NCBI GenBank assembly: GCA_016867115.1 | Contig: VGKG01000005.1 | Coordinates: 1 to 61,250, forward strand | Reading direction: 5' to 3' | From: Candidatus Omnitrophota bacterium | GTDB lineage: Bacteria > Omnitrophota > Gorgyraeia > Gygaellales > Profunditerraquicolaceae | Length of the DNA stretch: 61,250 bases | Shown here: positions 7,993-60,649 of the stretch, piece after piece | Layout of the letters: each line of letters begins with the position of its first letter | How positions within the stretch are numbered: position 1 is the first letter of the stretch | Notes under the pieces: model-generated | What the model was told of the DNA's origin: nothing | The model's input: the letters and a program-made list of their open reading frames with translations, nothing else | Database searches by the model: none | Position numbers and translations under genes: made by a program

Positions 7993-8000
7993 TATTTGTT

Positions 8001-9506: not shown

Positions 9507-9516
9507 CTCATCCTCC

Positions 9517-10002
9517 TCACTGTCCCGTAACAGGCTCTCCGCCTGCCGCGGGTGCGGATATATTAAACTCTTGCCCCTGAAATTCGACTACTACCCCGTT
9601 TTTATCTATGTCGATAATACGTGCTCCTCCTATCGTATCGCCTTGTTTTACCACGCTGTCATTGATGATCGCCTGCGGCAGGCTGCTTCCCCAGATCAGC
9701 CCCTGGACCTTAAGGGGCGGAGGCTGGACCGCCTCTTTTGCCGGCGTAATTTGGCTGGAAGGCATCTGCACATCCTTGCCCAGCTCAAGAAAGGGGTCTC
9801 TCAAGTCCGTTGCTTTGTATTCAACGGCAGGCCGCTCGATCTGATCCTGCGGCCTGATCCCGGGCTGCTGTTTCTCTTTTTGTTCGATCTCCTTCACCAT
9901 CTCCCGGGAAGAGCCCTGCGTATAAGCCGGCGTCAAAAAAGAACAGATAATAAATGCGGCAAAAAAAGGTGTAGCTAAGGCTTCAGGGTTTATTTTTTTC
10001 AT
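9517..10002 (-). CDS. Secreted small protein in the MshK/PilP position of the pilus operon
   Basis: Has a signal peptide, and its position between the PilO-like protein and the secretin fits. I did not recognise a diagnostic motif. Confidence 0.4.
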   Translation of the reverse strand: MKKINPEALATPFFAAFIICSFLTPAYTQGSSREMVKEIEQKEKQQPGIRPQDQIERPAVEYKATDLRDPFLELGKDVQMPSSQITPAKEAVQPPPLKVQGLIWGSSLPQAIINDSVVKQGDTIGGARIIDIDKNGVVVEFQGQEFNISAPAAGGEPVTGQ

Positions 10003-35593: not shown

Positions 35594-35672
35594 GATTACA
35601 CAGATTTCAAAACAGATTACACAGATTAAAGTTTCTAATCTGTGTAATCTAAGCGCTTTAATCTATGTAATC
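35594..35672. repeat. GATTACACAGATT nested palindromic element (two direct plus two inverted arms) upstream of argC
   Basis: Arms lie at 35594-35606, 35615-35627, 35637-35649 (inverted) and 35660-35672 (inverted, 1 mismatch). The inner stem is 14 bp and perfect. A near-identical element lies at 60513-60587. Confidence 0.85.
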
Positions 35673-46988: not shown

Positions 46989-48236
46989 TCATCCTTCAAA
47001 CTTCTTCACAATCAGTGTAGCGTTGTGGCCGCCGAAGCCTAAGGAATTGGACATGCAGACATCCACCTTCGCTTTGCGGGCGGTATTGGGGACATAATCC
47101 AGGTCACAGTCAGGATCCGGATGTTCGTAGTTGATCGTCGGCGGGATGACTCCGTCCTTTATCGCCAGGCAGCAGGCCGCAAACTCGACGCCTCCGGCAG
47201 CGCCCAGCAGATGGCCGGTCATGGATTTAGTGGAAGAGACCGCTATTTTCTTAGCGTGGCTTCCTAAGGCCTTCTTTATCGCCACAGTCTCCAGCTTATC
47301 GTTAAGCTTGGTAGAAGTTCCGTGAGCGTTAATATAATCTATGTCCTCGGGATTAAGCCCTGCGTCACGCAGAGCTGAGAGCATTGCCCGGCAGGCTCCG
47401 TCTCCTTCAGGATCAGGGGCAGTGATATGATAGGCATCGCAACTCATGCCGTAACCGCAAATTTCACCGTAAATGCGCGCGCCTCTCTTCTTTGCATGCG
47501 CAAGGCTCTCAAGGACTACCAGGCCGCATCCTTCGGCCATGACAAAACCGTCCCGCTCTGCATCAAAGGGACGCGATGCCTTCTGAGGCTCGTGATTACG
47601 TAAAGAGAGCGCCTTTAAAGCGCAAAAGCCGCCGACCCCTAGAAATGTGATGCAGCTTTCCGTGCCTCCGGTGACCATCACGTCGGCATCCCCGCGCTCG
47701 ATGATCTTAAAGGCGTCTCCGATCGCGTGTGACCCCGAAGCGCAGGCGGTGGCGACGCAGGAATTAGGCCCCTTCAGGCCGAAATTGATCGCTACATGGC
47801 CGCTGGCCTCGTTCACGATGAGCATAGGTATAAGAAAAGGCGAGATGCGCGAAGGCCCTTTCTCGTAATAGACCTTGGCCTCTACTTCAACGGTATGCAG
47901 GCTCCCTATGCCCGAACCGACCAGAACGCCTATCCTGGCCAGGTCTTCCTTATCCAGCTCTAAACCGCTATCCTTGATCGCCTGCGTGGCGCTGGCTACG
48001 GCGTACTGGACAAACTTATCCATCCGCTTGGTATCCTTGGAGGATAGACCGTAGAGGCCGGGGTCAAAGCCTTTTATTTCGCCGGCGATGCGTGAATCGA
48101 ATTTCGAGGCGTCAAAGGTCTTCAGGACATCTACGCCGCTTGCGCCTTCTCTTAAGGACTTCCAGAAAGAAGGCACATCATTGCCGACCGGCGTGATCAC
48201 TCCCAGGCCCGTAACTACGACTCTGTTTTCCTGCAT
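46989..48236 (-). CDS. fabF: Beta-ketoacyl-ACP synthase II
   Basis: The Cys-His-His triad is intact: ATACASGSHAIG, INAHGTSTKLND and KSMTGHLLGAAG. Confidence 0.94.
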   Translation of the reverse strand: MQENRVVVTGLGVITPVGNDVPSFWKSLREGASGVDVLKTFDASKFDSRIAGEIKGFDPGLYGLSSKDTKRMDKFVQYAVASATQAIKDSGLELDKEDLARIGVLVGSGIGSLHTVEVEAKVYYEKGPSRISPFLIPMLIVNEASGHVAINFGLKGPNSCVATACASGSHAIGDAFKIIERGDADVMVTGGTESCITFLGVGGFCALKALSLRNHEPQKASRPFDAERDGFVMAEGCGLVVLESLAHAKKRGARIYGEICGYGMSCDAYHITAPDPEGDGACRAMLSALRDAGLNPEDIDYINAHGTSTKLNDKLETVAIKKALGSHAKKIAVSSTKSMTGHLLGAAGGVEFAACCLAIKDGVIPPTINYEHPDPDCDLDYVPNTARKAKVDVCMSNSLGFGGHNATLIVKKFEG

Positions 48237-48354
48237 GTTTTATCTGACTGTGTTAATCCCGCTGCTCCGTAAACAAGGCGGGATAAATTCGGCCAGACAA
48301 CTTACGCTCCCTGCCCCGCCTTTGGCGGGGGGGGAGTCGCGTAAGTTATGGCCT

Positions 48355-48390
48355 CATTTAATAAATACCCCGCCGGAATGCGGCGGGGTA
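48355..48390 (-). terminator. Hairpin terminator/attenuator after acpP
   Basis: The 10-bp stem TACCCCGCCG/CGGCGGGGTA (48366-48375 and 48381-48390) is followed on the minus strand by TATTTATT. Confidence 0.6.
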
Positions 48391-48417
48391 TTTTGAACAC
48401 GGATCTATCTGTAGACT

Positions 48418-48660
48418 TTATTTCGCGGCGGATTTTGAGTCGATGTACTTCATTGCATCACCCACGGTGATGATCTTTTCCGCGTCTTCATCCGGGATCT
48501 CGATGCCGAATTCCTCTTCAAGAGCCATGACCAGCTCTACGGTATCCAGCGAATCAGCGCCCAGGTCATCCACAAAAGATGCCTCGGGGGTGACCTCTTC
48601 TGGTTTTACTCCCAGCTGCTCTGCGATGATTGATTTGACCTTATCATGCACTGCTGCCAT
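48418..48660 (-). CDS. acpP: Acyl carrier protein
   Basis: [20 protein letters not shown] contains the phosphopantetheine Ser. Confidence 0.96.
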
Positions 48661-48707
48661 GCGTTTACCTCCTCAATTAATTTGCCCTAGATTTCCGGGC
48701 TGGCAAA

Positions 48708-49451
48708 TTATGCCATTACCATTCCGCCGTCCACTACTATAGTCTGGCCGGTAATATAGCTGGCATCGTCTGATGCCAGGAACAAACACACATTGGCGAT
48801 ATCTTCGGGGCTGCCAAACCTGCTTAAGGGAATAGCCTGTTTCATCTTCTCCTTAAGCTCCTCGGGAAGCTTTGCCGTCATCTCGGTTGAGATGAAGCCC
48901 GGCGCCACTGCGTTTACGTTGATATTGCGGCTGCTCAGTTCCTTGGCCGCGGTTTTGGTCAGAGCGATTATGCCTGCCTTGGAGGCAGAATAGTTTGCCT
49001 GCCCGGGGTTTCCGATTATCCCGATGATCGAAGCGATGTTGATGATCCTGCCTGAGCGCTGCTTGATCATGGGCCGGGATACGGCCTTGATGCAGTTGAA
49101 CGTGCCTTTCAGGTTCACATCCAGCACCGCATCCCACTCCTGCTGGCTCATTCTGAGAAGAAGATTGTCTTTGGTGATGCCGGCATTGTTAACTAATATA
49201 TCAACCTTTGCGAAATTGTCAAGAATTTTGTTTAGCGCTTCCTCTACCTTGGCAAAGTCGGTGACATCCATGGAGACGGCTAAGGCTTTCCTGCCGCCAG
49301 CCTCTATCTCCTTAGCCGTACTCTCTGCCGCTTCTATATTTACGTCCGCCACCACTATGTCTGCTCCGGATGCGGCAAAGCATAGAGCAATAGCCTTACC
49401 TATGCCGCGAGCGCCCCCTGTGACCAAAGCAACCTTATCTTTAAGCTCCAT
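48708..49451 (-). CDS. fabG: 3-oxoacyl-ACP reductase
   Basis: It is an SDR with TGGARGIG, NNAG and YSASKAG. Confidence 0.93.
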   Translation of the reverse strand: MELKDKVALVTGGARGIGKAIALCFAASGADIVVADVNIEAAESTAKEIEAGGRKALAVSMDVTDFAKVEEALNKILDNFAKVDILVNNAGITKDNLLLRMSQQEWDAVLDVNLKGTFNCIKAVSRPMIKQRSGRIINIASIIGIIGNPGQANYSASKAGIIALTKTAAKELSSRNINVNAVAPGFISTEMTAKLPEELKEKMKQAIPLSRFGSPEDIANVCLFLASDDASYITGQTIVVDGGMVMA

Positions 49452-49474
49452 CTTGCCTCCCTAACTACTATCTG

Positions 49475-50395
49475 CTAACTGCTATCTACTGTATTTAGGA
49501 TGTCCTCTTTCTTCTCTATGCCGGTAACCGGTATACTGCTGTCAATACGGCGCATCAGGCCCTTTAGCACCTTTCCCGGGCCGAATTCATAAAAATCGGT
49601 CACGCCCTGGGAGATGATATATCTCATTGATTCTTCCCATTTTACCGGAGAATACATCTGCTGGATGAGGTTCTCGCGGATCTGGCCTGCGCGGTATTGC
49701 GGCATGGCGGTAACATTACTTACTACCGGCACTGCCGGTGCGGATACCGGGGTATTCTCAAGAAAGAGCTTTAGCTCAGCTGACGCTTCAAACATGAGGG
49801 ATGAGTGGAAGCCGCCGCTCACCTCAAGGAAAATGACTCTTTTTGCCCCCTGCCCCTGGCACGATTTAGCCGCCGCATCCACTGCTTCAGACTTACCGGA
49901 GATGACGATCTGGCCGGGGGCATTGAGGTTGGCGATCTCTGCGCCGGTCTTAAGACAGATATCCTTGACCGCATCAAAACCCAGTTCAAGCACCGCTGCC
50001 ATCTTTCCGGGGTAGCGGCAGGTGGCATCTTCCATGATCTCGGCCCTTCTCCTTACCAGCCTAAGGCCGTCCTCAAAGGTAAGGCTGCCTGCGGCGATCA
50101 GCGCGCTATACTCCCCGAGGCTAAGGCCGGCCATAAAAAGGGGGTGCGGCTTGGTTATGCTCTTGAATGCTTCAAGGGCCGCGATGCTTACGGTGAGGAT
50201 CGCCGGCTGCGACATGATCGTCTGCTTAAGCATGGCCGGATCGCCGCTGAACATGAGGCGGGACAGGGAAAAATGGAGCGCCTCATCGGCAGAATCAAAG
50301 ACCGCCTTGCTTTCGGGAAAGGCCTCGCATAAGTCCTTTCCCATCCCGATATACTGGCTGCCCTGGCCTGCGAACAGAAAAGCTGTCTGTGCCAT
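49475..50395 (-). CDS. fabD: Malonyl CoA-ACP transacylase
   Basis: Has FAGQGSQYIGMG and GLSLGEYSAL. Confidence 0.93.
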   Translation of the reverse strand: MAQTAFLFAGQGSQYIGMGKDLCEAFPESKAVFDSADEALHFSLSRLMFSGDPAMLKQTIMSQPAILTVSIAALEAFKSITKPHPLFMAGLSLGEYSALIAAGSLTFEDGLRLVRRRAEIMEDATCRYPGKMAAVLELGFDAVKDICLKTGAEIANLNAPGQIVISGKSEAVDAAAKSCQGQGAKRVIFLEVSGGFHSSLMFEASAELKLFLENTPVSAPAVPVVSNVTAMPQYRAGQIRENLIQQMYSPVKWEESMRYIISQGVTDFYEFGPGKVLKGLMRRIDSSIPVTGIEKKEDILNTVDSS

Positions 50396-50403
50396 AGGTT
50401 AAT

Positions 50404-51381
50404 TTACCATTCAATGACTACTGCGCCCCAGACCAGGCCCGCACCGAAGGCATCCAGCAGCACGGTGTCTCCCTTTTTGACCCTGCCTTCTTTTACCGCC
50501 TCGCAAAGCGCGGTAATGGTGGAGGCGCTGGACATATTGCCGTATCTTTCTATATTCAGGTAGATCTTCTCCTGCGGAAAGTTAAGCTTTTTTGCCATAG
50601 CCATAATGATGCGCACATTCGCCTGATGGGGAATGACCAGGTCTATATCTTTAGGTTCAAGCCCCGCTTTTTTGATCGCCATATACGCTGCTTCGGCCAT
50701 GGTCGTCACCGCAAGCTTAAAGACTTCGTTTCCCTCCATCTTTAGATAATGCAGCCGGTCCTCCAGCGTTTGAGTGGTCGCCGGATGCCGGGAACCGCCG
50801 CCGGGAATATTCAAAAGGTCTGCCCTTGTGCCGTCGCTGCCCAGGTACGTGGAGAGTATGCCTCCTGCCTCCACCTCTGAAAGCACAGCCGCAGCTGCGC
50901 CGTCCCCGAATAAGACGCAGGTATTCCTGTCTTCCCAATCGGTAAAAGCGGAGAGCTTTTCCGCTCCGATTACTAAAATATTCTTGTAGGTGCCGCGGGA
51001 AATGAACTGGCTGGCGACGCTTAAGGCGTAAACGAATCCGGCGCAGGCAGCGCTGACATCGAAAGCTGCGGCGTTCTTTGCGCCGATACCATGCTGCACA
51101 TAGCAGGCGACCGAAGGAGTAAACATATCCGGGGTGATGGTGGCGACGATGATCAATTCAAGGTCGATTGCGGCAAGCTTCGCGTCCAGGAGCGCCTCCT
51201 TGGCGGCCTTTATCGCCAGGTCCGAAGTGGCCTCATTCTTAGCCGCGATCCTGCGCTCTTTGATGCCGGTGCGCGTAGTGATCCATTCATCGGAGGTATC
51301 GACCATCTTCTCAAGGTCGGCGTTGGTCAGTACCTTTTTGGGCAGATACTCTCCCAGGCCTATAATACCTACTCTTTTCAC
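50404..51381 (-). CDS. fabH: Beta-ketoacyl-ACP synthase III
   Basis: Has SAACAGF and IPHQAN, and the C-terminal GAGLVWGA. Confidence 0.93.
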   Translation of the reverse strand: MKRVGIIGLGEYLPKKVLTNADLEKMVDTSDEWITTRTGIKERRIAAKNEATSDLAIKAAKEALLDAKLAAIDLELIIVATITPDMFTPSVACYVQHGIGAKNAAAFDVSAACAGFVYALSVASQFISRGTYKNILVIGAEKLSAFTDWEDRNTCVLFGDGAAAAVLSEVEAGGILSTYLGSDGTRADLLNIPGGGSRHPATTQTLEDRLHYLKMEGNEVFKLAVTTMAEAAYMAIKKAGLEPKDIDLVIPHQANVRIIMAMAKKLNFPQEKIYLNIERYGNMSSASTITALCEAVKEGRVKKGDTVLLDAFGAGLVWGAVVIEW

Positions 51382-51407
51382 TCTTACGCTTTCCTTTCTA
51401 TGCTGAT

Positions 51408-52397
51408 TTATTTCGGCTTGATCGCTTCGAGGATTTTTTCGTTGAAGGAGCGTTCGACTTCTTCTTTGGCGACACGGATAGCGTTCTTGATGGCTTTGAT
51501 GTTTGAGCGGCCGTGGCCGATGATCACGACTCCGTTTACCCCCAAAAGCGGCGCTCCGCCGTATTCGGAATAATCCAGCTCCCGCTTAAAACGCATGAAG
51601 CTTGACCTTAACATCAGGAGCCCGATCTTACTCATGGGATTGCTTAACAGGTGCTTCTTGAGGAATGCCTGCATGGTCTCAACCACCGACTCCGTCACCT
51701 TAAGTGCAACGTTACCCACAAAGCCGTCGCAGACGATGATATCGCTCTTTCCGGAGAAGAGGTCCTTTCCCTCCACATTGCCGATGAAATTAAGGCCGCT
51801 CTTTTCCAGGAGTTCGCGCGCCTCCTTAATCACCTCGGTACCCTTGCTCTCTTCTTCTCCGATATTCAGGATCCCGACTTTGGGGTCGGGCCTGTTGAGG
51901 ATGTAGCGGAAATAGGCGTCCGCCATGATGGCGTACTGCAGTAAATGCGTGGGCTTAATGTCGATATTGGCGCCCACGTCGATGATCAGGGAGATGTCCT
52001 TTAAAGTGGGGGTAATGATGGCGATCCCCGGCCGCTCGATCCCGGGAAGAAGCCCCAGCCACAGGGTCGCAGCGCAGACTACCGCGCCGGTATTGCCGGC
52101 GCTGAAGAACGCATCGGCCTTTCCTTCCTTGACCAGGTTCAACCCTACGACTATAGAAGAGTTCCTTTTACGCCTGACGCTGGTGGCGGCGGATTCGTCC
52201 ATCTGGATCACGACGGGGGCGTGGTGCACGGTGATATTGCTGCCGTTGTATCTGGCTTTCTTTAAAAGCGGGGTGATCCTGGCTTCGTCTCCTACCAGGA
52301 TCACTTCGGCATTATATTCGTTTACTGCCGCGACTGTCCCCTCGATAACTACCTCGGGCGCATGATCCCCGCCCATCGCATCAACGACTATCTTCAT
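51408..52397 (-). CDS. plsX: Phosphate acyltransferase
   Basis: The start is MKIVVDAMGGDHAPE. I prefer the ATG at 52397 (ATGA overlap with the rpmF stop) over the track start at 52499. Confidence 0.92.
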   Translation of the reverse strand: MKIVVDAMGGDHAPEVVIEGTVAAVNEYNAEVILVGDEARITPLLKKARYNGSNITVHHAPVVIQMDESAATSVRRKRNSSIVVGLNLVKEGKADAFFSAGNTGAVVCAATLWLGLLPGIERPGIAIITPTLKDISLIIDVGANIDIKPTHLLQYAIMADAYFRYILNRPDPKVGILNIGEEESKGTEVIKEARELLEKSGLNFIGNVEGKDLFSGKSDIIVCDGFVGNVALKVTESVVETMQAFLKKHLLSNPMSKIGLLMLRSSFMRFKRELDYSEYGGAPLLGVNGVVIIGHGRSNIKAIKNAIRVAKEEVERSFNEKILEAIKPK

Positions 52398-52594
52398 CTC
52401 TTCTTCTTCTTTTCTTTGACTTCGATCTCGACGACTTTCCTGCCGTTGTAATAGCCGCAGACCATGCAGGCGCGGTGAGGCAATTTCGGCTGCTTGCACT
52501 GGGGGCAGGAAGAAAGATTCGTCGTCGCCACTTTCCAGTGTGTGCGGCGCCTTCGGCCGCGCGCTTTAGAATGTCTTTTTTTCGGTAGAGCCAC
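52394..52594 (-). CDS. rpmF: 50S ribosomal protein L32
   Basis: Has MALPKKRHSKARGRRRRTHWK and a CPQC...CMVC zinc ribbon. Confidence 0.93.
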   Translation of the reverse strand: MALPKKRHSKARGRRRRTHWKVATTNLSSCPQCKQPKLPHRACMVCGYYNGRKVVEIEVKEKKKKR

Positions 52595-52610
52595 AGCGAA
52601 CTCCTTTCAC

Positions 52611-53018
52611 TTATTTACAATCGCACTTTCCTTCGTTCAGGTTCCTGCCGCATTTCGGGCATAGCCCCTGACAATCCGCCTTGCACAGAGGTTTTACCGG
52701 ATAATCCAGGATCGCCTCTTCCCTGATCTCGGGATCCAGATTCACTAACGGGTTCTGGTTATCCGCCGGAAGATCCAGGTCAAACTCTTTATTAAACTTT
52801 ATCTGGACGGCCTCAAGGCACCGGCTGCAGGTAGCCTTAAGCAGGGCGGCCATATTCAGATGCAGATGGACGGCATTGGTGATCTTGGTCGCCTCTACAG
52901 TCACCTTAAGCGGGGTGGTAAACTTGACACAATCCGTGTCCAGGTCCAGGCTCTCCGGCGGAAAATCCTCGGCGAGAATCAGCCCTTCCTCCGGTATCTG
53001 GTTGATATCTATTTTCAT
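52611..53018 (-). CDS. yceD: YceD/DUF177 family protein
   Basis: It sits in the conserved position upstream of rpmF, with the C-terminal CKADCQGLCPKCGRNLNEGKCDC. Confidence 0.85.
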   Translation of the reverse strand: MKIDINQIPEEGLILAEDFPPESLDLDTDCVKFTTPLKVTVEATKITNAVHLHLNMAALLKATCSRCLEAVQIKFNKEFDLDLPADNQNPLVNLDPEIREEAILDYPVKPLCKADCQGLCPKCGRNLNEGKCDCK

Positions 53019-53506
53019 AAAGTCTGTTTATGCAGCTTTATTTTAAGCGCTTCTTCCACAAAATCAGGGACAAAACTGGACAGATCCGCGCCGAGCGTTG
53101 CCGCCTCCTTTAAAAGTTTCGAAGAGAGGTAGCTGTAGGATTCCTGCGGCATCAGAAAGATCGTCTCGATATCGGGTGCGAGCTTGCGGTTCGTCAGGGC
53201 CATCTGAAACTCATACTCAAAATCAGAGAGCATGCGCAGGCCCCGGATCAGGACCTTGGCCTTGTGTTTACGCGCATAATCCACTACCAGCCCGTCAAAA
53301 GACTCAATCTCCACCCCTTTTAAGCCGGCAGTAGCCTTCCTGATCATGGCTACCCTTTCCTCAAGGCTGAAGAGCGGGCCCTTATGCGGATTGCGCGCCA
53401 CGGCTACGATCACCTCGGAGAATACCTCCTGCGCCCGCTTGATCAGATCGATGTGGCCGTAGGTGACCGGGTCAAAGGTACCCGGATAAATGGCTACCTG
53501 ACACAT
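53015..53506 (-). CDS. coaD: Phosphopantetheine adenylyltransferase
   Basis: AIYPGTFDPVTYGHIDLIKRA is the diagnostic motif. Confidence 0.94.
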   Translation of the reverse strand: MCQVAIYPGTFDPVTYGHIDLIKRAQEVFSEVIVAVARNPHKGPLFSLEERVAMIRKATAGLKGVEIESFDGLVVDYARKHKAKVLIRGLRMLSDFEYEFQMALTNRKLAPDIETIFLMPQESYSYLSSKLLKEAATLGADLSSFVPDFVEEALKIKLHKQTL

Positions 53507-53508
53507 AC

Positions 53509-54231
53509 TTACGCTTCTTTCCTATAAATGGAGATTACAGTATCGCCGTACCTGGCTTGCTTGACGAGGCTAAGCTTTCCGGCTTGCCGGGGGAGCTCAT
53601 CGCGCTTAAAATGCTGCACTACCACCAGACCAATGGGCGCTAATATATCATAAGCCCCCAGCATTTGCAAGGCTTTTTTTGACGCAGAAGGCGGCACACC
53701 AACCCATCCTTTAGGGTTGGGTGTTGACGCAGAAGGCGGCACACCAACCCATCCTTTAGGGTTGGGTGTTGACGCAGAAGGCGGCACACCAACCTTTCTG
53801 TCCATAGAGGACGCACTTGGCAATCCTTTATGCCAAGGTGCCTTAAGGTTGGGCGTTGCCGTACCCTTCTTATAGTAAGGAGGGTCTAAGAAGATGATTT
53901 CAAAGCTTTTCTTCTCTTTATGCAGGAGCCGGATCGCGCTTTCAGAATCCAGGGGAATAAGGCTGCAGTCGGTTATTCCCAGGGACTCTATATTCCTGCG
54001 GATCGCCTGCAGGGATTCCCGTTCAGGCTCAACCAGGGTAAGGCTCGCAGCTCCCCTGGAGAGCGCCTCAAAGCCCACTGCCCCCGAACCGGCAAAAAGC
54101 TCCAGGAAAGAGAGCCCCTCGATGTCTCCCAGGATGTCAAAGACCGCCTTCCTTACCTTATTCTGGGTCGGCCGGATGCCTTTGGGCATCTTAAGGAGCC
54201 TGCCTTTGAATATACCGGTAGTTATTCTCAT
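53509..54231 (-). CDS. rsmD: 16S rRNA (guanine966-N2)-methyltransferase RsmD with an internal repeat insertion of about 60 aa
   Basis: Has RPTQNKVRKAVFDIL, LELFAGSGAVGFEALSRGA and IFLDPPY. At 240 aa it is longer than the usual 180-190 aa. Confidence 0.88.
   Translation of the reverse strand: MRITTGIFKGRLLKMPKGIRPTQNKVRKAVFDILGDIEGLSFLELFAGSGAVGFEALSRGAASLTLVEPERESLQAIRRNIESLGITDCSLIPLDSESAIRLLHKEKKSFEIIFLDPPYYKKGTATPNLKAPWHKGLPSASSMDRKVGVPPSASTPNPKGWVGVPPSASTPNPKGWVGVPPSASKKALQMLGAYDILAPIGLVVVQHFKRDELPRQAGKLSLVKQARYGDTVISIYRKEA
53681..53866. repeat. In-frame array of hairpin units inside rsmD: two perfect 45-bp units, a partial third and diverged copies
   Basis: Units run 53681-53725 and 53726-53770, with a partial unit 53771-53794. 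A diverged hairpin lies at 53813-53841 and a half copy at 53841-53866. All hairpins share the loop ATCCTTTA and a bulged G. Confidence 0.9.
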
Positions 54232-54237
54232 CAGAGA

Positions 54238-55734
54238 TTATTTCAGCGATCTTAAAGCAAGGTCTGCCGCGTCTTTTCCGGAGACAAGGGCCCCGTGCAT
54301 GCCGCAGCCTGGCCTGGTCCAGGCGCCGGAAAGGAAGAGCCCCCTGACCCGGGTGCTTTGCGCCAGGCGGTTGATGCTCGCCTGGTTCACCGTCTGGGCA
54401 AAGCCGTAAATCGCGCCTTCCGGCAGAGTGCCGAAACGCTGCATAGTCTTAGGGGTGGCGACTTCCATGACCTCGATGGTTTCGCTTAAACCCGGCAGGT
54501 ATTTTTCCAGCCGCCTGATCAGCCGGCCAGCCACCGCAACTTTTTTCTCTGCGTATTCTCTCCCGTTTAAATGCGCCCAGTTGGCGAAATTATCCAGGGA
54601 CATGATCAAGAGGCTCCCCTTGCCCGGCGGGGTGAGGCCGGGGTCAAGCTGCGCATGGTCCACGGCAGAAAAGGCGCTATGTTCATAATCGCCCCGCATA
54701 AAGCGGCCAAAACCCTCGTCATGGTCGTAGCCGGTGCAGACCGAAAGCATGAAATGCTCCATACCCAGGCTCTTTGCCGGGACATTTAAGCCCAGGTATA
54801 TCTGAAGCGCAGAGACTGATTTTTCCATCGCTGCCAGACGCCGGGCATAATCTTTCTTCAGTTCGCCGTCATCGAGCAGAGTGCATAACGTATCTATGGC
54901 ATTGGCATTGGAAATCACTGTGCGGGCCCTGAACTCTTCCCCTTTAGCGGTGACCACCCCGCAGGCGCCGGACCTTGCGGTGACGATCTTTTTTACTTCG
55001 GTATTAAACCTCACCTCGCCCCCCAGCTCTTCTATTCTTTGCGTCATGGCCCTGAATATCCGGATAAAGCCTCCCCTGCAATAAACAGTAGGCTCGAAAT
55101 AATAACCCCTGAAGACGACCAGAAAATAAAATGCCGAAAGGCGGCTGGGAGGCGAGCCGATGAAACGCCAGATCTCGGTAAGGATAGCCGTCAGTTTCTT
55201 ATCGCTGATGTATTTCTTAAGGAAACTTTCGGCAGTAAGGCAGGAGGCCCTGATGATCCCCGGATAAAGGATGGGGGCAAGCGCCAGGTTAAGCCATTCA
55301 GGCAGCTTCGAATCCGCATAGCGGTCAAACTGACGGTAGAGATCTTTAAGGCCGCAAAAGAGCCGGCTCAGCTCTTCTGCCTGATGCGGGAAGCTCTTCT
55401 TTAAATAATCCTTGTAGTGTCCGGGATCAAAGTCTGCGACAAAGTCGTGTTCGGGAAACCTGATGCGGCAGAAATCTTTCAGGGGGATAAACTCAAGGCC
55501 ATTATCCAGGCCGTATTCCTGCAGGAACCGGCGCACCTCACCGCCCTCTGCCAGGGCATCCACGCAGTGCAGGGCGGATTCGAAGGTAAAACCCCGGCGG
55601 GTAAAGGTTGTGCCCAGCCCTCCGGGAAGAGGCTGTTTTTCAAGGACCAGGACCTTCCTGCCTGCAGCTGCCAGCTTGACTGCCGGGACCAGTCCGCCGG
55701 TGCCGGCGCCGATGATTATGCAATCATAAAGCAT
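54238..55734 (-). CDS. Phytoene desaturase (CrtI)-family NAD(P)/FAD-dependent oxidoreductase
   Basis: The dinucleotide fold is YDCIIIGAGTGGLVPAVKLAAAGRKVLVLEKQPLPGG. At 498 aa it has the C-terminal GAWTRPGCGMHG. Confidence 0.8.
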   Translation of the reverse strand: MLYDCIIIGAGTGGLVPAVKLAAAGRKVLVLEKQPLPGGLGTTFTRRGFTFESALHCVDALAEGGEVRRFLQEYGLDNGLEFIPLKDFCRIRFPEHDFVADFDPGHYKDYLKKSFPHQAEELSRLFCGLKDLYRQFDRYADSKLPEWLNLALAPILYPGIIRASCLTAESFLKKYISDKKLTAILTEIWRFIGSPPSRLSAFYFLVVFRGYYFEPTVYCRGGFIRIFRAMTQRIEELGGEVRFNTEVKKIVTARSGACGVVTAKGEEFRARTVISNANAIDTLCTLLDDGELKKDYARRLAAMEKSVSALQIYLGLNVPAKSLGMEHFMLSVCTGYDHDEGFGRFMRGDYEHSAFSAVDHAQLDPGLTPPGKGSLLIMSLDNFANWAHLNGREYAEKKVAVAGRLIRRLEKYLPGLSETIEVMEVATPKTMQRFGTLPEGAIYGFAQTVNQASINRLAQSTRVRGLFLSGAWTRPGCGMHGALVSGKDAADLALRSLK

Positions 55735-55737
55735 AAG

Positions 55738-56574
55738 TTAAAGACCGTCCAGGAACTTAACCGCCTCGGCGATCACCTTTTCCTTTTCCTGGTCAATGGT
55801 GATCATGTGGTAACTGTCTTCCAGCATCACCAGGCTCTTCCTGGAAGAGCCGATCCTTTCGTAAAGGTATTGGGCGTTGCGCGGGCTGGTCATATCGTCT
55901 TCGCGGGCATGAATGATCAGGATGGGGCTCTTCACAGAAGAGAGCACCTGTTTTACTACCTTGGTAAAAAGGTGGTGCTGATAAAGGCAGGCAAGCGGGA
56001 AAAATGGGCTGCCGAAGATAAGGACTTTCTGGTCGAAGTCGCGCGCTTTTGCCTGCTTATAAAATCTCTCGATGTGCGCCCGGGAATATTCATCCTTCAG
56101 GCCGTAAGGCCAGCCTTCCCTGATATTGACGGCATTCCTGATAAAGGGTATGTGCCAGGTCAGATACATAAATACCCTTTTCTTAGGCAGGGCCCAGCCG
56201 TCATAAAACAGGGTGGGGGCAAGGGCGATGATGCCGGAGACCTCATCGGGAAACTCATGGGCAAGCCTGACCGCCATCAAAGCGCCCATAGAGAGGCCGC
56301 CGACATAAACCCGGTCATATTGCTCTTTCAGCCGGTGCAGGTCGCCTGCGCAAAAGGAATATATCTGCTGCCAGGTGACCCTTTTAAGCTCTCCCAGGGA
56401 AGAACAGTGGCGCGGCAGGGTGTTGCAGGCCACGGTGTATCCGGCCCTATTCAGCCCCTTGCCTAAATAACGCATTTCGCTGGGCGTACCGGTGATCCCG
56501 TGGATCAAAAGAACCGCTTTACCGTTTGTGCCGGTAAGCGAAAAATTGTACTTCTTGGAATTCTCCGTTTCCAT
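55738..56574 (-). CDS. Alpha/beta hydrolase (carboxylesterase/thioesterase-like)
   Basis: Has LLIHGITGTPSEMR and the GGLSMGA nucleophile elbow. The likely start is METENSK (56574), which avoids overlap with the upstream KS. Confidence 0.8.
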   Translation of the reverse strand: METENSKKYNFSLTGTNGKAVLLIHGITGTPSEMRYLGKGLNRAGYTVACNTLPRHCSSLGELKRVTWQQIYSFCAGDLHRLKEQYDRVYVGGLSMGALMAVRLAHEFPDEVSGIIALAPTLFYDGWALPKKRVFMYLTWHIPFIRNAVNIREGWPYGLKDEYSRAHIERFYKQAKARDFDQKVLIFGSPFFPLACLYQHHLFTKVVKQVLSSVKSPILIIHAREDDMTSPRNAQYLYERIGSSRKSLVMLEDSYHMITIDQEKEKVIAEAVKFLDGL

Positions 56575-56584
56575 AGGGGTAGTA

Positions 56585-57799
56585 TTATAGCACAAAATTC
56601 TTAAAGATGACCGAGGCGTTATTTCCGCCGAATGCCGAGGCATTATTCATGGCGAACTCTACCTTAAGCCTGCGGCAGGAGTTCGGCACGCAGTCGATGT
56701 CGCAGTCGGGATCAGGGGTCTTGAAATTTATCGTCGGAGGGATACACCCTTCTTTTATCGCCAGGCAGCAGGCGACCGACTCGATCGCAGAAGCAGCGCC
56801 CATAGTATGGCCGAGCATGGATTTGATGGATGAGACCGGGATATCGCGGCAGGCGCTGCCAAAGACCTCTTTCATCGCCAGGCACTCCTCCCGGTCATTA
56901 GCAGGCGTACCTGTGCCGTGGGCGTTGATGTAATCGATATCTCCGGGAACTAACGAAGACTCGCTAAGCGCATTACGGATCGCCCGAGCTATGCCCGGGG
57001 CATGCGGGGCAGTCATGTGATAGGCGTCGCAGCTTATCCCGTAGCCTGCCACTTCGGCCAGAATATCCGCGCCCCTCTTCTGTGCGCGGTCAAGGGATTC
57101 CAGGACTAGGGCCGCAGCGCCCTCGCCGACCATCATCCCTTTCCTGTCCTTGTCGAAGGGCTGGCAGATCTCGGGGGCTACGGCGAAAAGCCGGTTAAAA
57201 CCGGTAAAAGCGATCTTTGAAAAGGCATCCGTTCCTCCGGCAAGCATGACATCCGTCACCCCTGCCCTTATCAGGTCAGCGGCGTATCCGAGGGCGTAAT
57301 TTCCGGCTGCGCAGGCATTAGGAAGGACAAGATTGGGGCCTTTAAGCTTGAACTCTATCCCGACATTGGCAGCCAGCACATTGGCCGGCAGGCGCGGCAG
57401 CCAGACAGGATCGATTGCCTGCTCTCCTTCTTTTACCCAGCGGTAATTGATCCGCTCAAAGACCTGCGTCTCGCCCATCGTCGTGCCGAGGATGACCCCT
57501 GCCTTTTCTTTATCGCCGGCGCTCAGTTTCAAGCCTGCGTCGGAAAACGCAAGGCGGGAAGCGGCTATGGCCAGTGCAGATGCCCGGCCGACCAGTTGCG
57601 CCCTCCTCCTGCTCATAAAGTCCTCGGGGGAAAAATCTTTTATCTCGCCGCCGTTGTGCGTGGGAAAACCGGAGGTATCAAAGGTCTCGACCGGCCGGAT
57701 GCCCGATTTGCCCGCAGTCAGGGCTTTCCAGAAAACGTCCCGGCCTATGCCGATGGAAGAAACTACCCCGACTCCGGTAATAACGACTCTCTTATCCAT
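56585..57799 (-). CDS. Beta-ketoacyl synthase (FabF-like, catalytically complete) of the second cluster
   Basis: PNACAAGNYALG (Cys), INAHGTGTPANDREE (His) and KSMLGHTMGAAS (His) are all present. Confidence 0.88.
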   Translation of the reverse strand: MDKRVVITGVGVVSSIGIGRDVFWKALTAGKSGIRPVETFDTSGFPTHNGGEIKDFSPEDFMSRRRAQLVGRASALAIAASRLAFSDAGLKLSAGDKEKAGVILGTTMGETQVFERINYRWVKEGEQAIDPVWLPRLPANVLAANVGIEFKLKGPNLVLPNACAAGNYALGYAADLIRAGVTDVMLAGGTDAFSKIAFTGFNRLFAVAPEICQPFDKDRKGMMVGEGAAALVLESLDRAQKRGADILAEVAGYGISCDAYHMTAPHAPGIARAIRNALSESSLVPGDIDYINAHGTGTPANDREECLAMKEVFGSACRDIPVSSIKSMLGHTMGAASAIESVACCLAIKEGCIPPTINFKTPDPDCDIDCVPNSCRRLKVEFAMNNASAFGGNNASVIFKNFVL

Positions 57800-58229
57800 T
57801 CTCTCTGGCGCTCAGGCTGATCTCTCCCCGGGCAACGACTTTATCGCCGACGCGCGCTTCGGCGCTCACGATGCCGATATTAGAAAGCATTTTCAATGGC
57901 TCTACCTTGATGATTAACTGGTCGCCAGGTGAAACCGGCTGCAAAAAACGCATCTTCACTGCGCCCAGATAATAGGACATGTTCTTGCCGGATAACCCGG
58001 ACTTACCAGAATAGAAAAGCACGATTGAAGCCTGGGCCATGGCCTCAATGATCAACGCCCCGGGCATGACCGGCCTGCCGGGAAAGTGTCCGGAGAAGAA
58101 CTGCTCGTTAAAACTGACGTTCTTTACCGCCACGGCCTTTTTCCCGGGCTCTAATTCAGTCACCCGGTCGATCATCAGGAAGGGGTAACGCTGCGGCAGT
58201 ATCTCCTGTATCTGTTCGATATTAAGCAT
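57792..58229 (-). CDS. fabZ: 3-hydroxyacyl-ACP dehydratase
   Basis: FFSGHFPGRPVMPGALIIEAMAQ is the diagnostic motif. Confidence 0.92.
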   Translation of the reverse strand: MLNIEQIQEILPQRYPFLMIDRVTELEPGKKAVAVKNVSFNEQFFSGHFPGRPVMPGALIIEAMAQASIVLFYSGKSGLSGKNMSYYLGAVKMRFLQPVSPGDQLIIKVEPLKMLSNIGIVSAEARVGDKVVARGEISLSARENG

Positions 58230-58476
58230 CTTGTCCTTTCTTGTCTAAAAACTCCCGGGCTACGGCTACTGTCTGCCGCAATGTGGTCAGTTGCGTCAGT
58301 TTCTCCTCGGGGATGTGGATGCGATACTTCTTCTCCATCGCCGCCAGGATCTCCAGGGCCATCATGGAATCCACGCCCAGGTCCTCAAAAAACCTGGCGT
58401 CCGGGGTGACCTCCCGAGGTTCCTTCTCAATAATCTCTGCGATAAGATTCCTGATTTCGTTTTCCAGATCCTCCAT
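58222..58476 (-). CDS. Acyl carrier protein (second, cluster-specific)
   Basis: FFEDLGVDSMMALEILAAMEKKY contains the DSM Ser motif. I prefer the ATG at 58476 (AGGAGG 9 nt upstream). Confidence 0.85.
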   Translation of the reverse strand: MEDLENEIRNLIAEIIEKEPREVTPDARFFEDLGVDSMMALEILAAMEKKYRIHIPEEKLTQLTTLRQTVAVAREFLDKKGQDA

Positions 58477-58489
58477 CTTAATATGCCTC

Positions 58490-59236
58490 CTATTGTATGG
58501 ATAACCCTCCGTCAACGATGACTACCTGTCCGGTGATAAAACTTGCCCGGTCGCTGGCCATGAATTCCACTACCCTTGAGACATCATCAGCCGAACCGAA
58601 CCTGGCAAGGGGTATCCTCTTCCTGATCGCCTCGCGGAACTCTTCTTTCAGCGAACCGATCATATCCGTATCGATGAATCCCGGGGCCACGGCATTGACC
58701 CGGATATTGTAAGCGGCTACTTCCCTGGCTAAAGCCTTAGTAAAGCCAATGATGCCGGCCTTGGAGGCGGAATAATTAGTCTGACGGGGCAGGCCCGTCA
58801 CCCCGCTTACCGAGGTGATATTCACGATAGAGCCGCTCTTCTGTTTTAAAAAAGTGACGATGGCGCACCTGGTGGCGTTAAAGGTGCCGTTTAGATTCGT
58901 ATCCACCACCTCAAGCCACTCCTCCCTGGTCATCATCATCAAGGCCTTGTCGCGGGTGATCCCGGCATTATTCACCAGTATATCCAGCTTTCCGAAATCG
59001 TCCTTCACTCTTTCTATAAGCTGTCTGGACTGGTCGAAATCGCGCACATCCGCCTGTAAAGCCAAAACGCGCCTGCCGAGTTTCCCTGCTTCCCGGATCA
59101 ACAGATCTGCTTCCTGGGAACTTTTCAGATAAGTAAAGGCCACATCGCAGCCTGAACGGGCCAGGCGTAAGACTATTGCCCGGCCTATGCCTCTTGTCCC
59201 GCCCGTAACTATCGCGACTTTATCTTCAAGCAGCAT
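58490..59236 (-). CDS. SDR-family 3-oxoacyl-ACP reductase (FabG-like) of the second cluster
   Basis: Has TGGTRGIG, NNAG and YSASKAG. The likely start is MLLEDK at 59236. Confidence 0.88.
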   Translation of the reverse strand: MLLEDKVAIVTGGTRGIGRAIVLRLARSGCDVAFTYLKSSQEADLLIREAGKLGRRVLALQADVRDFDQSRQLIERVKDDFGKLDILVNNAGITRDKALMMMTREEWLEVVDTNLNGTFNATRCAIVTFLKQKSGSIVNITSVSGVTGLPRQTNYSASKAGIIGFTKALAREVAAYNIRVNAVAPGFIDTDMIGSLKEEFREAIRKRIPLARFGSADDVSRVVEFMASDRASFITGQVVIVDGGLSIQ

Positions 59237-60488
59237 TTTTATCCTTCTGGCCCCCGAAATCGGCAATCACAAGGCTTGTGCTGCAACCGCTTAACGAAAC
59301 GGCGTTGACCAGCACATTCTTTACTTGCGTTTCGCGGGCCGTATTGGGCACGCAGTCCAGGTCGCAATCCGCGTCACTCTCTCTGTAATTGACCGTCGCA
59401 GGCACGGTCTGCCGCTCTATCGCGCCTACTGCGGATACTGCCTGCAACGCCGCCGAAGCGCTGAAACATTCTCCGAGCATGGACTTGACGGAACTGGCGG
59501 GTGTCATTTTAGCTTTTGCGCCGAAGACTTCCTTTATCGCTCTTGTCTCCTCGAGGTCTGCCGCCCAGGTGGAGTTCGCCGCGCAGCTGATATAGCTGAT
59601 ATCTCCGGCAGGCATTCCCGAATCCTCAAGCGCCGCAGAGACCGCCTTCTTCAGCCCGTCTGCCCTGGTATAATATTTATTGAGCCGGTAAGGATCAAAG
59701 CCCCTGCCTGAACCGAGGACTTCGGCAAAGATCCGGGCATTCCTTTTCCTGGCATGCGTAAGCTCTTCGAGGCAAAGCACGGCTGCGCCTTCCCCCAGGA
59801 TGACCCCGTTTCTTCTTTTGTCAAAAGGGCAGCTTAATTCCGGAGCGCCTTCTTTTAATCCGGCCAAAAGTCCGCCTTTATAAAAAGCCAGGTAAGTCTG
59901 CAGGCAGAGTTCTTCCACTCCGCCGGCTAAACATGCGTCTATCCTGCCTGACCTGATAGCCTGCGCAGCATAGATCAGGGCATCCAGGCTTGAACAGAAG
60001 CTGTTAGAAACCGAGACATTGAATCCCTGGATATTGAACTTTATAGAGACCTGGCTTGCCGCGGAATTGATCACTGTATTCGGAAAGAGCGCGGGGTTCA
60101 CGTATCCGGGGCCTTCAAGGATCGCTTCCCGGTCAAAACCACTGATGCTGGAGATGCTGCCAAGGCTTGTGCCGACGGCTACTCCTATGCGGCCGCAATT
60201 CTCCTGCGTTACCGCTAAAGAGGCGTCATCCAGGCAGAGTTTTGTCGCCGAGCAGACGAGCCTGGTGCTGCGGTCAAGCGTCCTTAGGCCCTTTTGGCCG
60301 AGGTAATCCTGGGGGTTAAAGCCGCTGATCTCGCCGGCCAGATGCGCCTTCAGGGCCGCCGTATCAAAAAGCGAGACCGGCTTTATGCCGGATACCCCTT
60401 TAAAGAGAGCCTCATAAAAGGCATTCTTACCTATGGCATTAGATGCCAGCACCCCTATCCCCGTGATCGCTACCCTTTTGGCGTTCAT
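59226..60488 (-). CDS. Beta-ketoacyl synthase-like protein lacking both catalytic His (KS partner / chain-length-factor-like)
   Basis: The KS fold is present throughout and the Cys position is retained (SNSFCSSLDAL). The AHGT position reads SCAANST and the GH position reads LGECFSASA. Confidence 0.85.
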   Translation of the reverse strand: MNAKRVAITGIGVLASNAIGKNAFYEALFKGVSGIKPVSLFDTAALKAHLAGEISGFNPQDYLGQKGLRTLDRSTRLVCSATKLCLDDASLAVTQENCGRIGVAVGTSLGSISSISGFDREAILEGPGYVNPALFPNTVINSAASQVSIKFNIQGFNVSVSNSFCSSLDALIYAAQAIRSGRIDACLAGGVEELCLQTYLAFYKGGLLAGLKEGAPELSCPFDKRRNGVILGEGAAVLCLEELTHARKRNARIFAEVLGSGRGFDPYRLNKYYTRADGLKKAVSAALEDSGMPAGDISYISCAANSTWAADLEETRAIKEVFGAKAKMTPASSVKSMLGECFSASAALQAVSAVGAIERQTVPATVNYRESDADCDLDCVPNTARETQVKNVLVNAVSLSGCSTSLVIADFGGQKDKNAA

Positions 60489-60512
60489 CTTCGCTTAAAA
60501 TTAAATATAAAG

Positions 60513-60587
60513 GATTACACAGATTTATTTAGATTACACAGATTGAAGCTTTAATCTGTGTAATCTACCCTTATAATCTGCGTAATC
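60513..60587. repeat. Second GATTACACAGATT nested palindromic element, upstream of the KS-partner gene
   Basis: Arms lie at 60513-60525, 60532-60544, 60553-60565 (inverted) and 60575-60587 (inverted, 1 mismatch). The architecture matches 35594-35672. Confidence 0.85.
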
Positions 60588-60649
60588 AGAACGATCATTT
60601 TTTTAAACAATGAAGTATTATATACCACAAGCACGGCGACTGCAAGGCT

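Follow-up and report, generated by a model that had tools for sequence, protein, structure and literature searches.

A Candidatus Omnitrophota gene cluster of the anammox Cluster I type, with a pair resembling ketosynthase and chain-length factor and without a radical-SAM enzyme

The window analysed here is a 61,250-nt stretch of DNA from a Candidatus Omnitrophota bacterium (assembly GCA_016867115.1, contig VGKG01000005.1, positions 1 to 61,250 of the forward strand). At 54238–60488 it carries seven co-directional open reading frames (ORFs), all on the minus strand, which encode a ketosynthase (KS)-like protein (KS1), a ketoreductase (KR), an acyl carrier protein (ACP), a dehydratase (DH), a second ketosynthase (KS2), a serine hydrolase and a CrtI-family flavoprotein. 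We conclude with high confidence that this cluster is a line of the type known from anammox bacteria as Cluster I, but without the radical-SAM (rSAM) enzyme of the latter, and it is best explained as a private second type II line beside the housekeeping one, i.e. as the Omnitrophota version of Cluster I. On balance we favor the fuller reading of an orthogonal, self-priming KS/chain-length-factor (CLF) line whose product would be an acyl chain of short to medium length, probably unsaturated and set free by the hydrolase, and that would not make ladderanes; the assignment of the product, taken by itself, as a short unsaturated acyl chain is tentative and rather doubtful.

Results

Domains were assigned by Pfam and NCBIfam profile searches over the 46 larger ORFs of the window, with the NCBIfam equivalog cut-offs as pass/fail thresholds; about 10 kb past recG, the upstream neighbor of the cluster, were inspected as well. 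The original prediction, made from the DNA letters, of seven tightly packed or overlapping genes with the families named above was borne out by the ORFs and the Pfam/NCBIfam profiles. With gene starts taken from a public gene caller applied to identical contigs (ORF extents are sometimes longer), neighboring genes overlap by 8–11 nt or lie 3–13 nt apart. Identical copies of the cluster are present on contigs of JGI sample 3300020109 and in several Logan assemblies.

The placement of the cluster proteins turned on sequence searches of the PDB, in which the KS pair gave wide margins. Alignment with the window's own FabF showed that the Cys/His/His triad is replaced by Phe/Ala/Glu in KS1, which had been predicted to lack both catalytic His residues (correctly, with Ala and Glu in their places) and has lost the catalytic Cys (Phe) in addition; in KS2, Cys-His-His are all present. 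KS1 scored 336.8 bits in the NCBIfam search, under every FabF cut-off, and KS2 passed the FabF subfamily model NF005589 but failed the equivalog (447.8 versus 493.75). Among PDB entries, KS1 matched best to 9s5h_C (399 bits), followed by 9s5h_B (264) and canonical FabFs (about 240), and KS2 to 9s5h_B (507 bits), followed by the ishigamide KS Iga11 (359) and FabF (331); in both searches the actinorhodin KS and CLF scored far below the anammox proteins. As the code 9s5h is absent from the main text of the preprint (10.64898/2026.05.19.726425), we made the link via the metagenomic locus L083 (our locus numbers begin with L), whose CLF is 100 % identical to 9s5h_C, whose gene order is ACP-FabZ-KS-CLF-PDH-B12 rSAM, PDH denoting the flavoprotein, and which fits the residue numbers of the preprint (Cys165, His298, His335 and Phe394 in the KS, Phe135 and Val139 in the dead subunit). 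The published order of anammox Cluster I is likewise ACP-FabZ-KS-CLF-PDH-B12 rSAM. Relative to the Brocadia proteins of L083, KS1 is 47.6 % identical to amxFabFmut and KS2 55 % identical to amxFabF2, versus 43 % identity of KS2 to the window's FabF.

Phe135, Thr138 and Val139, described as tunnel-lining residues of amxFabFmut (10.64898/2026.05.19.726425), are invariant in a 10-sequence alignment of the window's KS1, eight Omnitrophota homologues and the Brocadia protein. KS2 retains C165, H298, H335, F203, M337 and F394 and has Met in place of A110. The second His position is occupied by Glu in the Brocadia dead subunit and in most Omnitrophota relatives, and by Asp in ten relatives. The triad is missing from all 79 of the 79 CLF relatives considered (F/Y/L/M; variable; E/D) and intact in 44 of 44 full-length partner KSs. 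In a neighbor-joining tree, which is rough, lacks support values, includes the window's FabF for comparison and is suited to coarse use only, the CLFs formed one clade and the KSs another, with the anammox CLFs as sister to all other CLFs; the KS/CLF pair would therefore have arisen once. The two proteins belong to distinct KS families, with a CLF and a KS clade, and their nearest structural relative is the anammox 9s5h and not FabF, an aryl-polyene (APE) KS or an aromatic polyketide synthase (PKS). KS1 and KS2 are encoded in one operon with KR-ACP-DH between them, and, by analogy to the anammox pair, they probably form a KS/CLF heterodimer. The anammox heterodimer decarboxylates malonyl-amxACP and prefers C8 over C16 in cross-linking (10.64898/2026.05.19.726425).

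The ACP and the DH follow the same pattern. The ACP stayed under the acyl_carrier cut-off (59.9 versus 70.45), matched best to amxACP in the PDB (7qv0_D and 7auf_A, 66–67 bits; next entry 47) and is 41 % identical to Brocadia amxACP versus 35 % to the window's AcpP. It shares with Brocadia amxACP the helix II motif ALEILA..EKK....IPEEKL, the recognition helix reading DSMMALEILAAMEKKYRIHIPEEKL in the window cluster and DSLLALEILALIEKKFKVQIPEEKL in Brocadia amxACP. The DH passed the FabZ equivalog TIGR01750 (166.3 versus 155.15 bits); its best PDB matches are amxFabZ entries (7qv0_A and 8ayb_A, 136–138 bits, compared with at most 126 for canonical FabZs), and it is 49 % identical to the FabZ of L083. 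The matched PDB entries are the anammox proteins of the Barends group; the changes I69G and H48N described in PMC10139942 are precisely those seen in 8ayc and 8ayi. At the positions that set amxFabZ apart from canonical FabZ, namely Ile for Gly at 69 and loss of the basic AcpP-binding residues at 96 and 115 (PMC10139942), the window's DH has Ile and Leu/Leu, as opposed to Gly/Lys/Arg in a canonical FabZ example. For amxFabZ, dehydration of C6–C8 was much faster than that of C10–C12 and substrate on canonical ACP was not converted; an I69G mutant showed no clear change of preference and left the part played by the Ile undecided (PMC10139942). The anammox-type FabZ signature argues against a housekeeping role for the window's DH, as far as sequence features can tell. 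The KR passed the FabG equivalog TIGR01830 (307.8 versus 297.75 bits) and shares 50 % identity with the housekeeping FabG of the window, so that on equivalog scores KR and DH pass as FabG and FabZ, KS1, KS2 and the ACP fail, and the window's own FabF passes.

In the anammox literature, the oddities of the FabF pair, the ACP and FabZ are read as adaptations to ladderane synthesis, and Cluster I is described as conserved in and exclusive to ladderane producers (PMC10139942; 10.64898/2026.05.19.726425). Judged by their residues, the KS pair, ACP and FabZ of the window are anammox-type proteins in just those features that are said to distinguish the anammox enzymes. The suggested link to ladderane loci that also contain phytoene-desaturase homologues has thereby gained ground, the KS pair, ACP and FabZ all being closest to the crystallized anammox Cluster I proteins.

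The rSAM enzyme separates the two. Every anammox locus that extends past the PDH gene (17 of 17) has an adjacent B12 rSAM gene scoring above 800 bits against the L083 enzyme; in the window there is no match to this enzyme at E<0.01, and it is missing from 77 of 78 distinct related non-anammox loci. Taking the Cluster I features gene by gene, four out of six are found in the window (dead plus active KS, tunnel residues, FabZ signature, ACP), the rSAM is not, and the flavoprotein is 29 % identical. The cluster resembles Cluster I (Kuenenia KustE3603-3608 and its Brocadia and Scalindua equivalents) in having active and dead KS families with the same dead-subunit tunnel residues, the same ACP type and FabZ signature (41–55 % identity over the four fatty-acid-synthase-like proteins), a CrtI-family flavoprotein at the 3' end and neither enoyl reductase nor FabH. 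Besides the missing B12 rSAM gene, it differs in its extra FabG-type KR and serine hydrolase, in its order (CLF-KR-ACP-DH-KS versus ACP-DH-KS-CLF), in the Phe at the catalytic-Cys position (Val/Thr in anammox), in the low identity of the flavoprotein, and in its host, which belongs to Omnitrophota and not Brocadiia and in which the cluster adjoins the housekeeping fab operon. Going by these comparisons, the window cluster should not be filed as a ladderane cluster and represents the same kind of machine in an rSAM-less form.

Two further rSAM genes were encountered. One, at 1102–2205 of the window and 52 kb away from the cluster, encodes a radical-SAM protein that has no B12 domain and is unrelated to the anammox Cluster I enzyme. 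In L062 (Omnitrophota metagenome-assembled genome (MAG), isolate STC_8; L062:7996-12267), a B12 rSAM gene lies 141 bp upstream of CLF-ACP-KS; its product reaches 146 bits and 30 % identity against the L083 enzyme, and this locus is the nearest to a full anammox-like set outside Brocadiia among the loci examined.

The hydrolase, with the nucleophile motif GLSMG, is of a LipS/monoacylglycerol-lipase/carboxylesterase-like kind (PDB matches LipS 4fbl, thermostable monoacylglycerol lipases and Est30) and always accompanies the flavoprotein in window-like loci. The flavoprotein stayed under the cut-offs of crtI_fam (191.5 bits) and carot_isom (181.7 bits). Its AlphaFold2 model (pLDDT 93.8) has carotenoid desaturases as best fold matches (4rep, TM 0.81, and CrtI 4dgk), and it may act on a C=C bond. 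A full-length comparison with the anammox Cluster I PDH of L083 gave 29 % identity, no closer than the match to the divergent PDHs of other Omnitrophota loci. Its subfamily comprises more than 120 database clusters at 52–59 % identity, of which the named ones (about 20) are, every one, Omnitrophota/Omnitrophica, and JGI annotates its relatives as prolycopene isomerase. For at least 14 of these clusters the contig is equal in length to one that encodes a KS1 homologue. In vivo, kuste3607, its homologue in anammox bacteria, failed to substitute for CrtI.

Relatives were sought by scanning one genome per species with two CLF-specific peptide motifs. Dead-subunit relatives were found in at least 581 species genomes (581 of 599 matching stretches listed), which is at odds with the expectation of a rare, minimal and uncharacterized oddity, the more so as the antiSMASH label ‘ladderane’ is already attached to clusters in Omnitrophota MAGs (PMC9902471). 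The best 80 of the at least 581 relatives are mostly labelled Omnitrophota/Omnitrophica, including Ca. Velamenicoccus archaeovorus LiM; the others among these 80 are about 19 TPA bins labelled uncultured Planctomycetia/Planctomycetales, five Thermodesulfovibrionia/Nitrospiraceae and a few unclassified ones. At 55–83 % identity, all named KS1 homologues belong to Candidatus Omnitrophota/Omnitrophica MAGs.

Among the relatives, three layouts are recurrent. Layout A, that of the window (CLF-[KR]-ACP-DH-KS-hydrolase-PDH), occurs in L008, L009, L024, L032, L071 and L119, and in L120 split over 6 kb; the proposed synteny search for the order KS-KR-ACP-DH-KS-hydrolase-CrtI was thus rewarded. In L119 (GCA_043800555.1; flavoprotein 56 % identical) the whole window order recG-CLF-KR-ACP-DH-KS-hydrolase-PDH-rsmD-coaD-yceD-rpmF-plsX-fabH-fabD-fabG-acpP-fabF-leuCD recurs, and in L008 rsmD follows the cluster. 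Layout B consists of an HTH_17 regulator followed by CLF-KR-ACP-DH-KS and variable extras, i.e. a FAR-like thioester reductase, a nitroreductase-family protein, a divergent PDH, a Rossmann-fold protein, a PEMT/ICMT-type methyltransferase and sensor kinases. Layout C reads ribD-ribE-CLF-KR-DH, then acylphosphatase and ligA, and was seen in 21 loci (including L006, L012, L025, L028, L037, L041 and L046; example L012:8278-12429), with no KS, ACP or PDH within 10 kb and with DHs that have Cys or Ala, not Ile, at the Gly69 position.

The genes at the release end vary. In 13 loci (e.g., L039:13982-15079 and L042:15671-16792) the gene after that of the KS encodes a FAR-like thioester reductase (NAD_binding_4) instead of the hydrolase, which implies release as aldehyde or alcohol in those genomes. 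In several layout A relatives, genes for a HAD phosphatase, a class III aminotransferase, an arginase-family protein, a FemAB-like/GNAT acyltransferase, EamA transporters and a DegT aminotransferase lie alongside the cluster or alongside its hydrolase and flavoprotein genes (L120:4787-13621; upstream of the CLF in L004, L024, L032 and L071; L008:6450-7631; L071:13891-15021), suggesting an N-acylated amine product there; no such gene lies near the cluster in the window. Such varied release and tailoring genes are the pattern expected for a dedicated product pathway. A cassette of a dihydrolipoyl-dehydrogenase-like E3, a LipB/LplA-type transferase and a small stand-alone lipoyl-domain protein lies directly upstream of, and co-directional with, the CLF cluster in 12 of the 78 loci (L005, L007, L010, L015, L018, L020, L021, L022, L030, L036, L039 at 7284-9520, and L042), among them that of Ca. 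Velamenicoccus archaeovorus, and in Brocadia-type anammox loci an E3-like gene is found just after the rSAM gene (L083:14446-15879).

Some loci show further peculiarities. Small ORFs with a GIY-YIG nuclease domain (family f16) are inserted between cluster genes (KR, ACP) in several of them, e.g., L059:12000-12302 and L120:19538-19783. In a complete MAG chromosome (CP070780.1; L029:13389-21223), the genes behind fabH-fabD are not fabG-acpP-fabF but a spermine-synthase-like one and that of a GGDEF regulator; an amx-type CLF, a Rossmann protein, KR and ACP lie convergent nearby, with a 785-aa AMP-binding enzyme between.

Discussion

Our working model for the cluster borrows from the anammox proteins wherever these have been studied. 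Within the presumed heterodimer, KS2 alone would be catalytic and KS1 would shape the acyl tunnel. The pair may prime itself by decarboxylation of malonyl-ACP, so that neither FabH nor a starter ligase would be needed, which would account for none being seen. Elongation would take place on the private ACP, with malonyl loading by the neighboring housekeeping FabD, and KR and DH would process every round. If they behave like their anammox counterparts, DH and heterodimer would favor short-to-medium chains (about C6–C10) and be insulated from the housekeeping AcpP, the DH acting on the private ACP. As no enoyl reductase is encoded and the line would be insulated from AcpP, the chain probably keeps at least one C=C bond. 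From gene content, the flavoprotein may desaturate, isomerize or saturate these bonds, and the hydrolase may release the product as free acid or hand it to lipid. Ladderanes should not be made.

The gene set behind this model agrees with what had been predicted: a KS with a non-catalytic partner, KR, DH and an ACP of its own, and no enoyl-ACP reductase family member in the cluster, the 46 scanned ORFs or the 10 kb past recG. The cluster also qualifies as a paralogous second type II machine, with canonical FabG, AcpP and FabF separately encoded in the window. The prediction that starter ligase, acyltransferase and exporter are absent holds for the cluster and the scanned window ORFs. A polyene product would be no more than a possible consequence of the missing reductase.

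Several points weigh against the reading as a dedicated line for a short, unsaturated chain. The preferred chain length for the KS pair and the dehydratase comes from non-physiological cross-linking and a dehydratase assay, both with anammox proteins, and the published tunnel could hold modelled C12–C16 chains (10.64898/2026.05.19.726425). A housekeeping enoyl reductase acting in trans could give a saturated chain. The flavoprotein has just 29 % identity to the anammox PDH, FabZ and KR pass the housekeeping equivalog cut-offs, and the cluster stands in one gene string with the fab operon, an arrangement conserved in L119. Finally, the riboflavin-gene and ligA context of layout C gives a hint of a core role and not an accessory one.

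Among alternatives, the lipoyl cassette upstream of CLF-KR-ACP-DH-KS in 12 of 78 loci, the E3-like gene behind the rSAM gene of Brocadia-type loci and the C6–C8 preference of the anammox heterodimer and amxFabZ call to mind an octanoyl-ACP supply, i.e. a C8 chain made on its own ACP for protein lipoylation, as in mitochondrial fatty acid synthesis. We nevertheless regard this as unlikely: such a line requires an enoyl reductase and none is encoded, the window has no lipoylation gene near the cluster, and an HTH regulator gene separates the lipoyl cassette from the cluster where both occur. Moreover, lipoate formation has no use for the hydrolase, for the CrtI-like flavoprotein or for FAR-like reductases, and the canonical fatty acid synthase of the same genome could provide octanoyl-ACP.

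Improbable to a similar degree is that the cluster is a housekeeping remainder that supplies the genome's only FabZ, plus a second FabG and KS, for bulk fatty acid synthesis, with the enoyl reductase elsewhere and the dead KS and extra ACP as lineage-specific parts. The window's FabZ lacks the basic residues with which canonical FabZ binds AcpP and has the tunnel Ile of amxFabZ, an enzyme by which no substrate on canonical ACP was converted and which was slow beyond C8 (PMC10139942). A full canonical set of FabG, AcpP and FabF is already present in the window, and neither the hydrolase and flavoprotein nor the variable tailoring genes of relatives belong to a fatty acid synthase. In its favor are the equivalog scores of FabZ and KR, the lack of a second FabZ among the 46 larger ORFs of the 61-kb window or in the 10 kb past recG, the contiguous and co-directional arrangement with rsmD-coaD-yceD-rpmF-plsX-fabHDG-acpP-fabF that is kept in L119, the CLF-KR-DH genes in the ribD-ribE...ligA context of 21 genomes, and L029, where fabH-fabD are not followed by fabG-acpP-fabF and amx-type KR and ACP genes lie nearby.

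Known anaerobic branches of unsaturated fatty acid synthesis (FabA/FabB, FabX) combine a KS, a DH and an isomerase-type flavoprotein without a reductase, and the gene logic of the cluster matches theirs. DH and flavoprotein could accordingly make or isomerize a C=C bond at C8–C10, to be elongated by a special KS and returned to the housekeeping line; the synteny with the fab operon conserved in L119 and the name prolycopene isomerase given by JGI to flavoprotein relatives would suit this. The private ACP, the hydrolase and the dead KS subunit are, however, foreign to any such known branch, and many relatives lack the flavoprotein, which leaves this explanation with a small chance.

The kinship to APE clusters raised in the original prediction did not hold up. 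The likeness is one of logic: APE clusters of Gram-negative bacteria also have a KS with a CLF-like partner, a FabG-like KR, a FabZ-like DH, a dedicated ACP and no enoyl reductase, the DH shows weak ApeI/ApeP-like Pfam matches in public annotation, and the polyene-forming Iga11 comes second to the anammox protein for KS2. A pigment-type cluster that places a long conjugated polyene on a lipid anchor is all the same very improbable. Among the 46 window ORFs there is no aryl ligase/ammonia-lyase, second ACP or DH, ApeK-type thioesterase, acyl- or glycosyltransferase, LolA-like protein or MMPL exporter. For each of the four core proteins the PDB entries of anammox Cluster I are much nearer than all others, and membership was rejected, as no APE-defining genes are found among the cluster genes or scanned neighbors. 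That the organism itself makes ladderane lipids we reject as highly unlikely: the window has genes of five out of six Cluster I families and antiSMASH tags such clusters ‘ladderane’ (PMC9902471), but ladderanes are reported from anammox bacteria only and the B12 rSAM, found in every long-enough anammox locus, is missing from the window and 77 of 78 related loci, the rSAM protein at the far end of the window having neither a B12 domain nor a match to the anammox enzyme.

Of other known systems, the ishigamide type II PKS with its Iga11 KS/Iga12 CLF pair resembles the private Cluster I-type line in operation, as it also joins a KS/CLF pair to KR and DH without an enoyl reductase, and Iga11 is the next-best structural relative of KS2 after the anammox KS (359 bits) just as it is of amxFabF2 (10.64898/2026.05.19.726425). 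The similarity is far lower than that to the anammox proteins, though, Iga12 is not among the 60 best sequence matches listed for KS1, and the window cluster has neither amide-forming nor other tailoring genes of the ishigamide pathway. Membership among aromatic type II PKSs was rejected: the Cys position of the CLF is Phe (F/Y/L/M in 79 of 79 relatives) and not Gln, and there are no cyclases. By analogy, the mode of operation would be like that of a highly reducing KS/CLF type II system such as Iga11/Iga12, the cluster being a member of neither the APE nor the aromatic PKS group. With the canonical type II fatty acid synthase of the same window (FabF, FabG, FabZ, AcpP) it shares folds and reaction cycle, and it departs from the latter by one dead KS subunit, a less acidic ACP helix II, a FabZ without basic patch and with the tunnel Ile, the lack of FabH and enoyl reductase, and the appended hydrolase and flavoprotein.

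Despite the label ‘exclusive’ in the anammox literature, the cluster machinery is not specific to ladderanes. The same four protein types with their diagnostic residues occur in a non-anammox phylum and are found again, without the rSAM enzyme, in hundreds of species genomes, and the ladderane-specific step would therefore shift to the rSAM and perhaps to the anammox flavoprotein subtype. The KS/CLF idea in fatty acid synthesis would also be put on a much broader footing. We know of no genetics for anammox bacteria, for which reason the product of the shared module cannot be learned there; the compact seven-gene clusters are candidates for heterologous expression to this end. A wider view is possible, although we hold it tentatively: Omnitrophota may possess, throughout the phylum and from early on, a second fatty acid synthase in the form of the ‘anammox-specific’ KS/CLF-ACP-FabZ module, which anammox Planctomycetota and some Nitrospirota would share and which in Omnitrophota would be wired into core lipid or cofactor metabolism and make a short acyl or enoyl chain, with ladderane synthesis having arisen by addition of a B12 rSAM. 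If true, the rSAM-less clusters would be natural ‘minus-cyclase’ versions whose product would identify the long-sought ladderane precursor, and the CrtI-like flavoprotein would be a new kind of enzyme modifying C=C bonds on acyl-ACP.

antiSMASH ‘ladderane’ biosynthetic gene clusters, expressed, have been reported from Omnitrophota and eight other groups in the Cariaco Basin, their function being left open (PMC9902471). Those of the Omnitrophota MAGs are probably of the same kind as the cluster described here, but no gene-level comparison is given there; our literature search found no gene-by-gene comparison of Omnitrophota clusters with anammox Cluster I and, on Omnitrophota lipid synthesis, nothing beyond this antiSMASH remark. 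Expressed clusters with this label are thus already known, and what is new here is the account of orthology, signatures and architectures and of the missing rSAM. Outside Brocadiia, a ‘ladderane’ call by antiSMASH should not be taken as ladderane potential.

Genomic context

The features of the cluster and its surroundings are compiled in Table 1.

Table 1. Cluster genes and neighboring features (window positions; starts as called by the gene caller where two extents are given).
Feature	Positions	Strand	Profile or remark
KS1, dead FabF paralogue (chain-length-factor-like, amxFabFmut type), 420 aa	59226..60488	-	Pfam ketoacyl-synt N+C
KR, FabG-type 3-oxoacyl-ACP reductase	58490..59236 (gene-caller start; ORF to 59266)	-	TIGR01830
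ACP, dedicated, amxACP type	58222..58476 (ORF to 58515)	-	PP-binding
DH, FabZ-type 3-hydroxyacyl-ACP dehydratase, amxFabZ signature	57792..58229	-	TIGR01750
KS2, ketosynthase with Cys-His-His, amxFabF2 type, 404 aa	56585..57799	-	NF005589
Serine alpha/beta hydrolase, candidate off-loading enzyme	55738..56574 (ORF to 56643)	-	Hydrolase_4
CrtI/CRTISO-family FAD flavoprotein (‘PDH’)	54238..55734	-	Amino_oxidase, crtI_fam
recG-KS1 intergenic region, AT-rich	60489..60649	.	four GATTACACAGATT boxes
rsmD, coaD, yceD, rpmF	52394..54231	-	co-directional bridge from cluster to fab operon, gaps <=48 nt
Housekeeping plsX-fabH-fabD-fabG-acpP-fabF operon	46989..52397	-	FabF 650.8 bits on TIGR03150

On the same strand and with gaps of at most 48 nt, the cluster is followed by rsmD, coaD, yceD, rpmF, plsX, fabH, fabD, fabG, acpP and fabF, the start of plsX lying about 1.7 kb downstream, where the canonical plsX-fabHDG-acpP-fabF set had been predicted. 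The rest of the window is made up of arg, lys, leu, pan, uvrA and type II secretion/pilus genes. A promoter/terminator scan of 46.5–61.25 kb, uninformative for this phylum, gave no convincing boundary between cluster and rsmD or between cluster and fab operon, nor did a sigma-70-like site turn up upstream of KS1.

The gap between recG and KS1 holds two forward and two reverse GATTACACAGATT boxes, 25–99 bp upstream of the KS1 start (60513–60587). They form an element of about 110 bp, of which a second copy, again with two forward and two reverse boxes, lies upstream of argC (35594–35672), amounting to 8 matches in the window versus 0.04 expected. In the loci of other species the element was not found, save for a single box in L018; it could serve as an operator common to both sites, or belong to a family of small repeats.

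The rsmD gene (53509–54231) contains a perfect 45-bp tandem repeat, 2.6 copies in frame at 53679–53794, which encodes repeated GVPPSASTPNPKGWV and breaks the Pfam match into two stretches; the rsmD products of relatives are 181–205 aa long and thus lack the insert.

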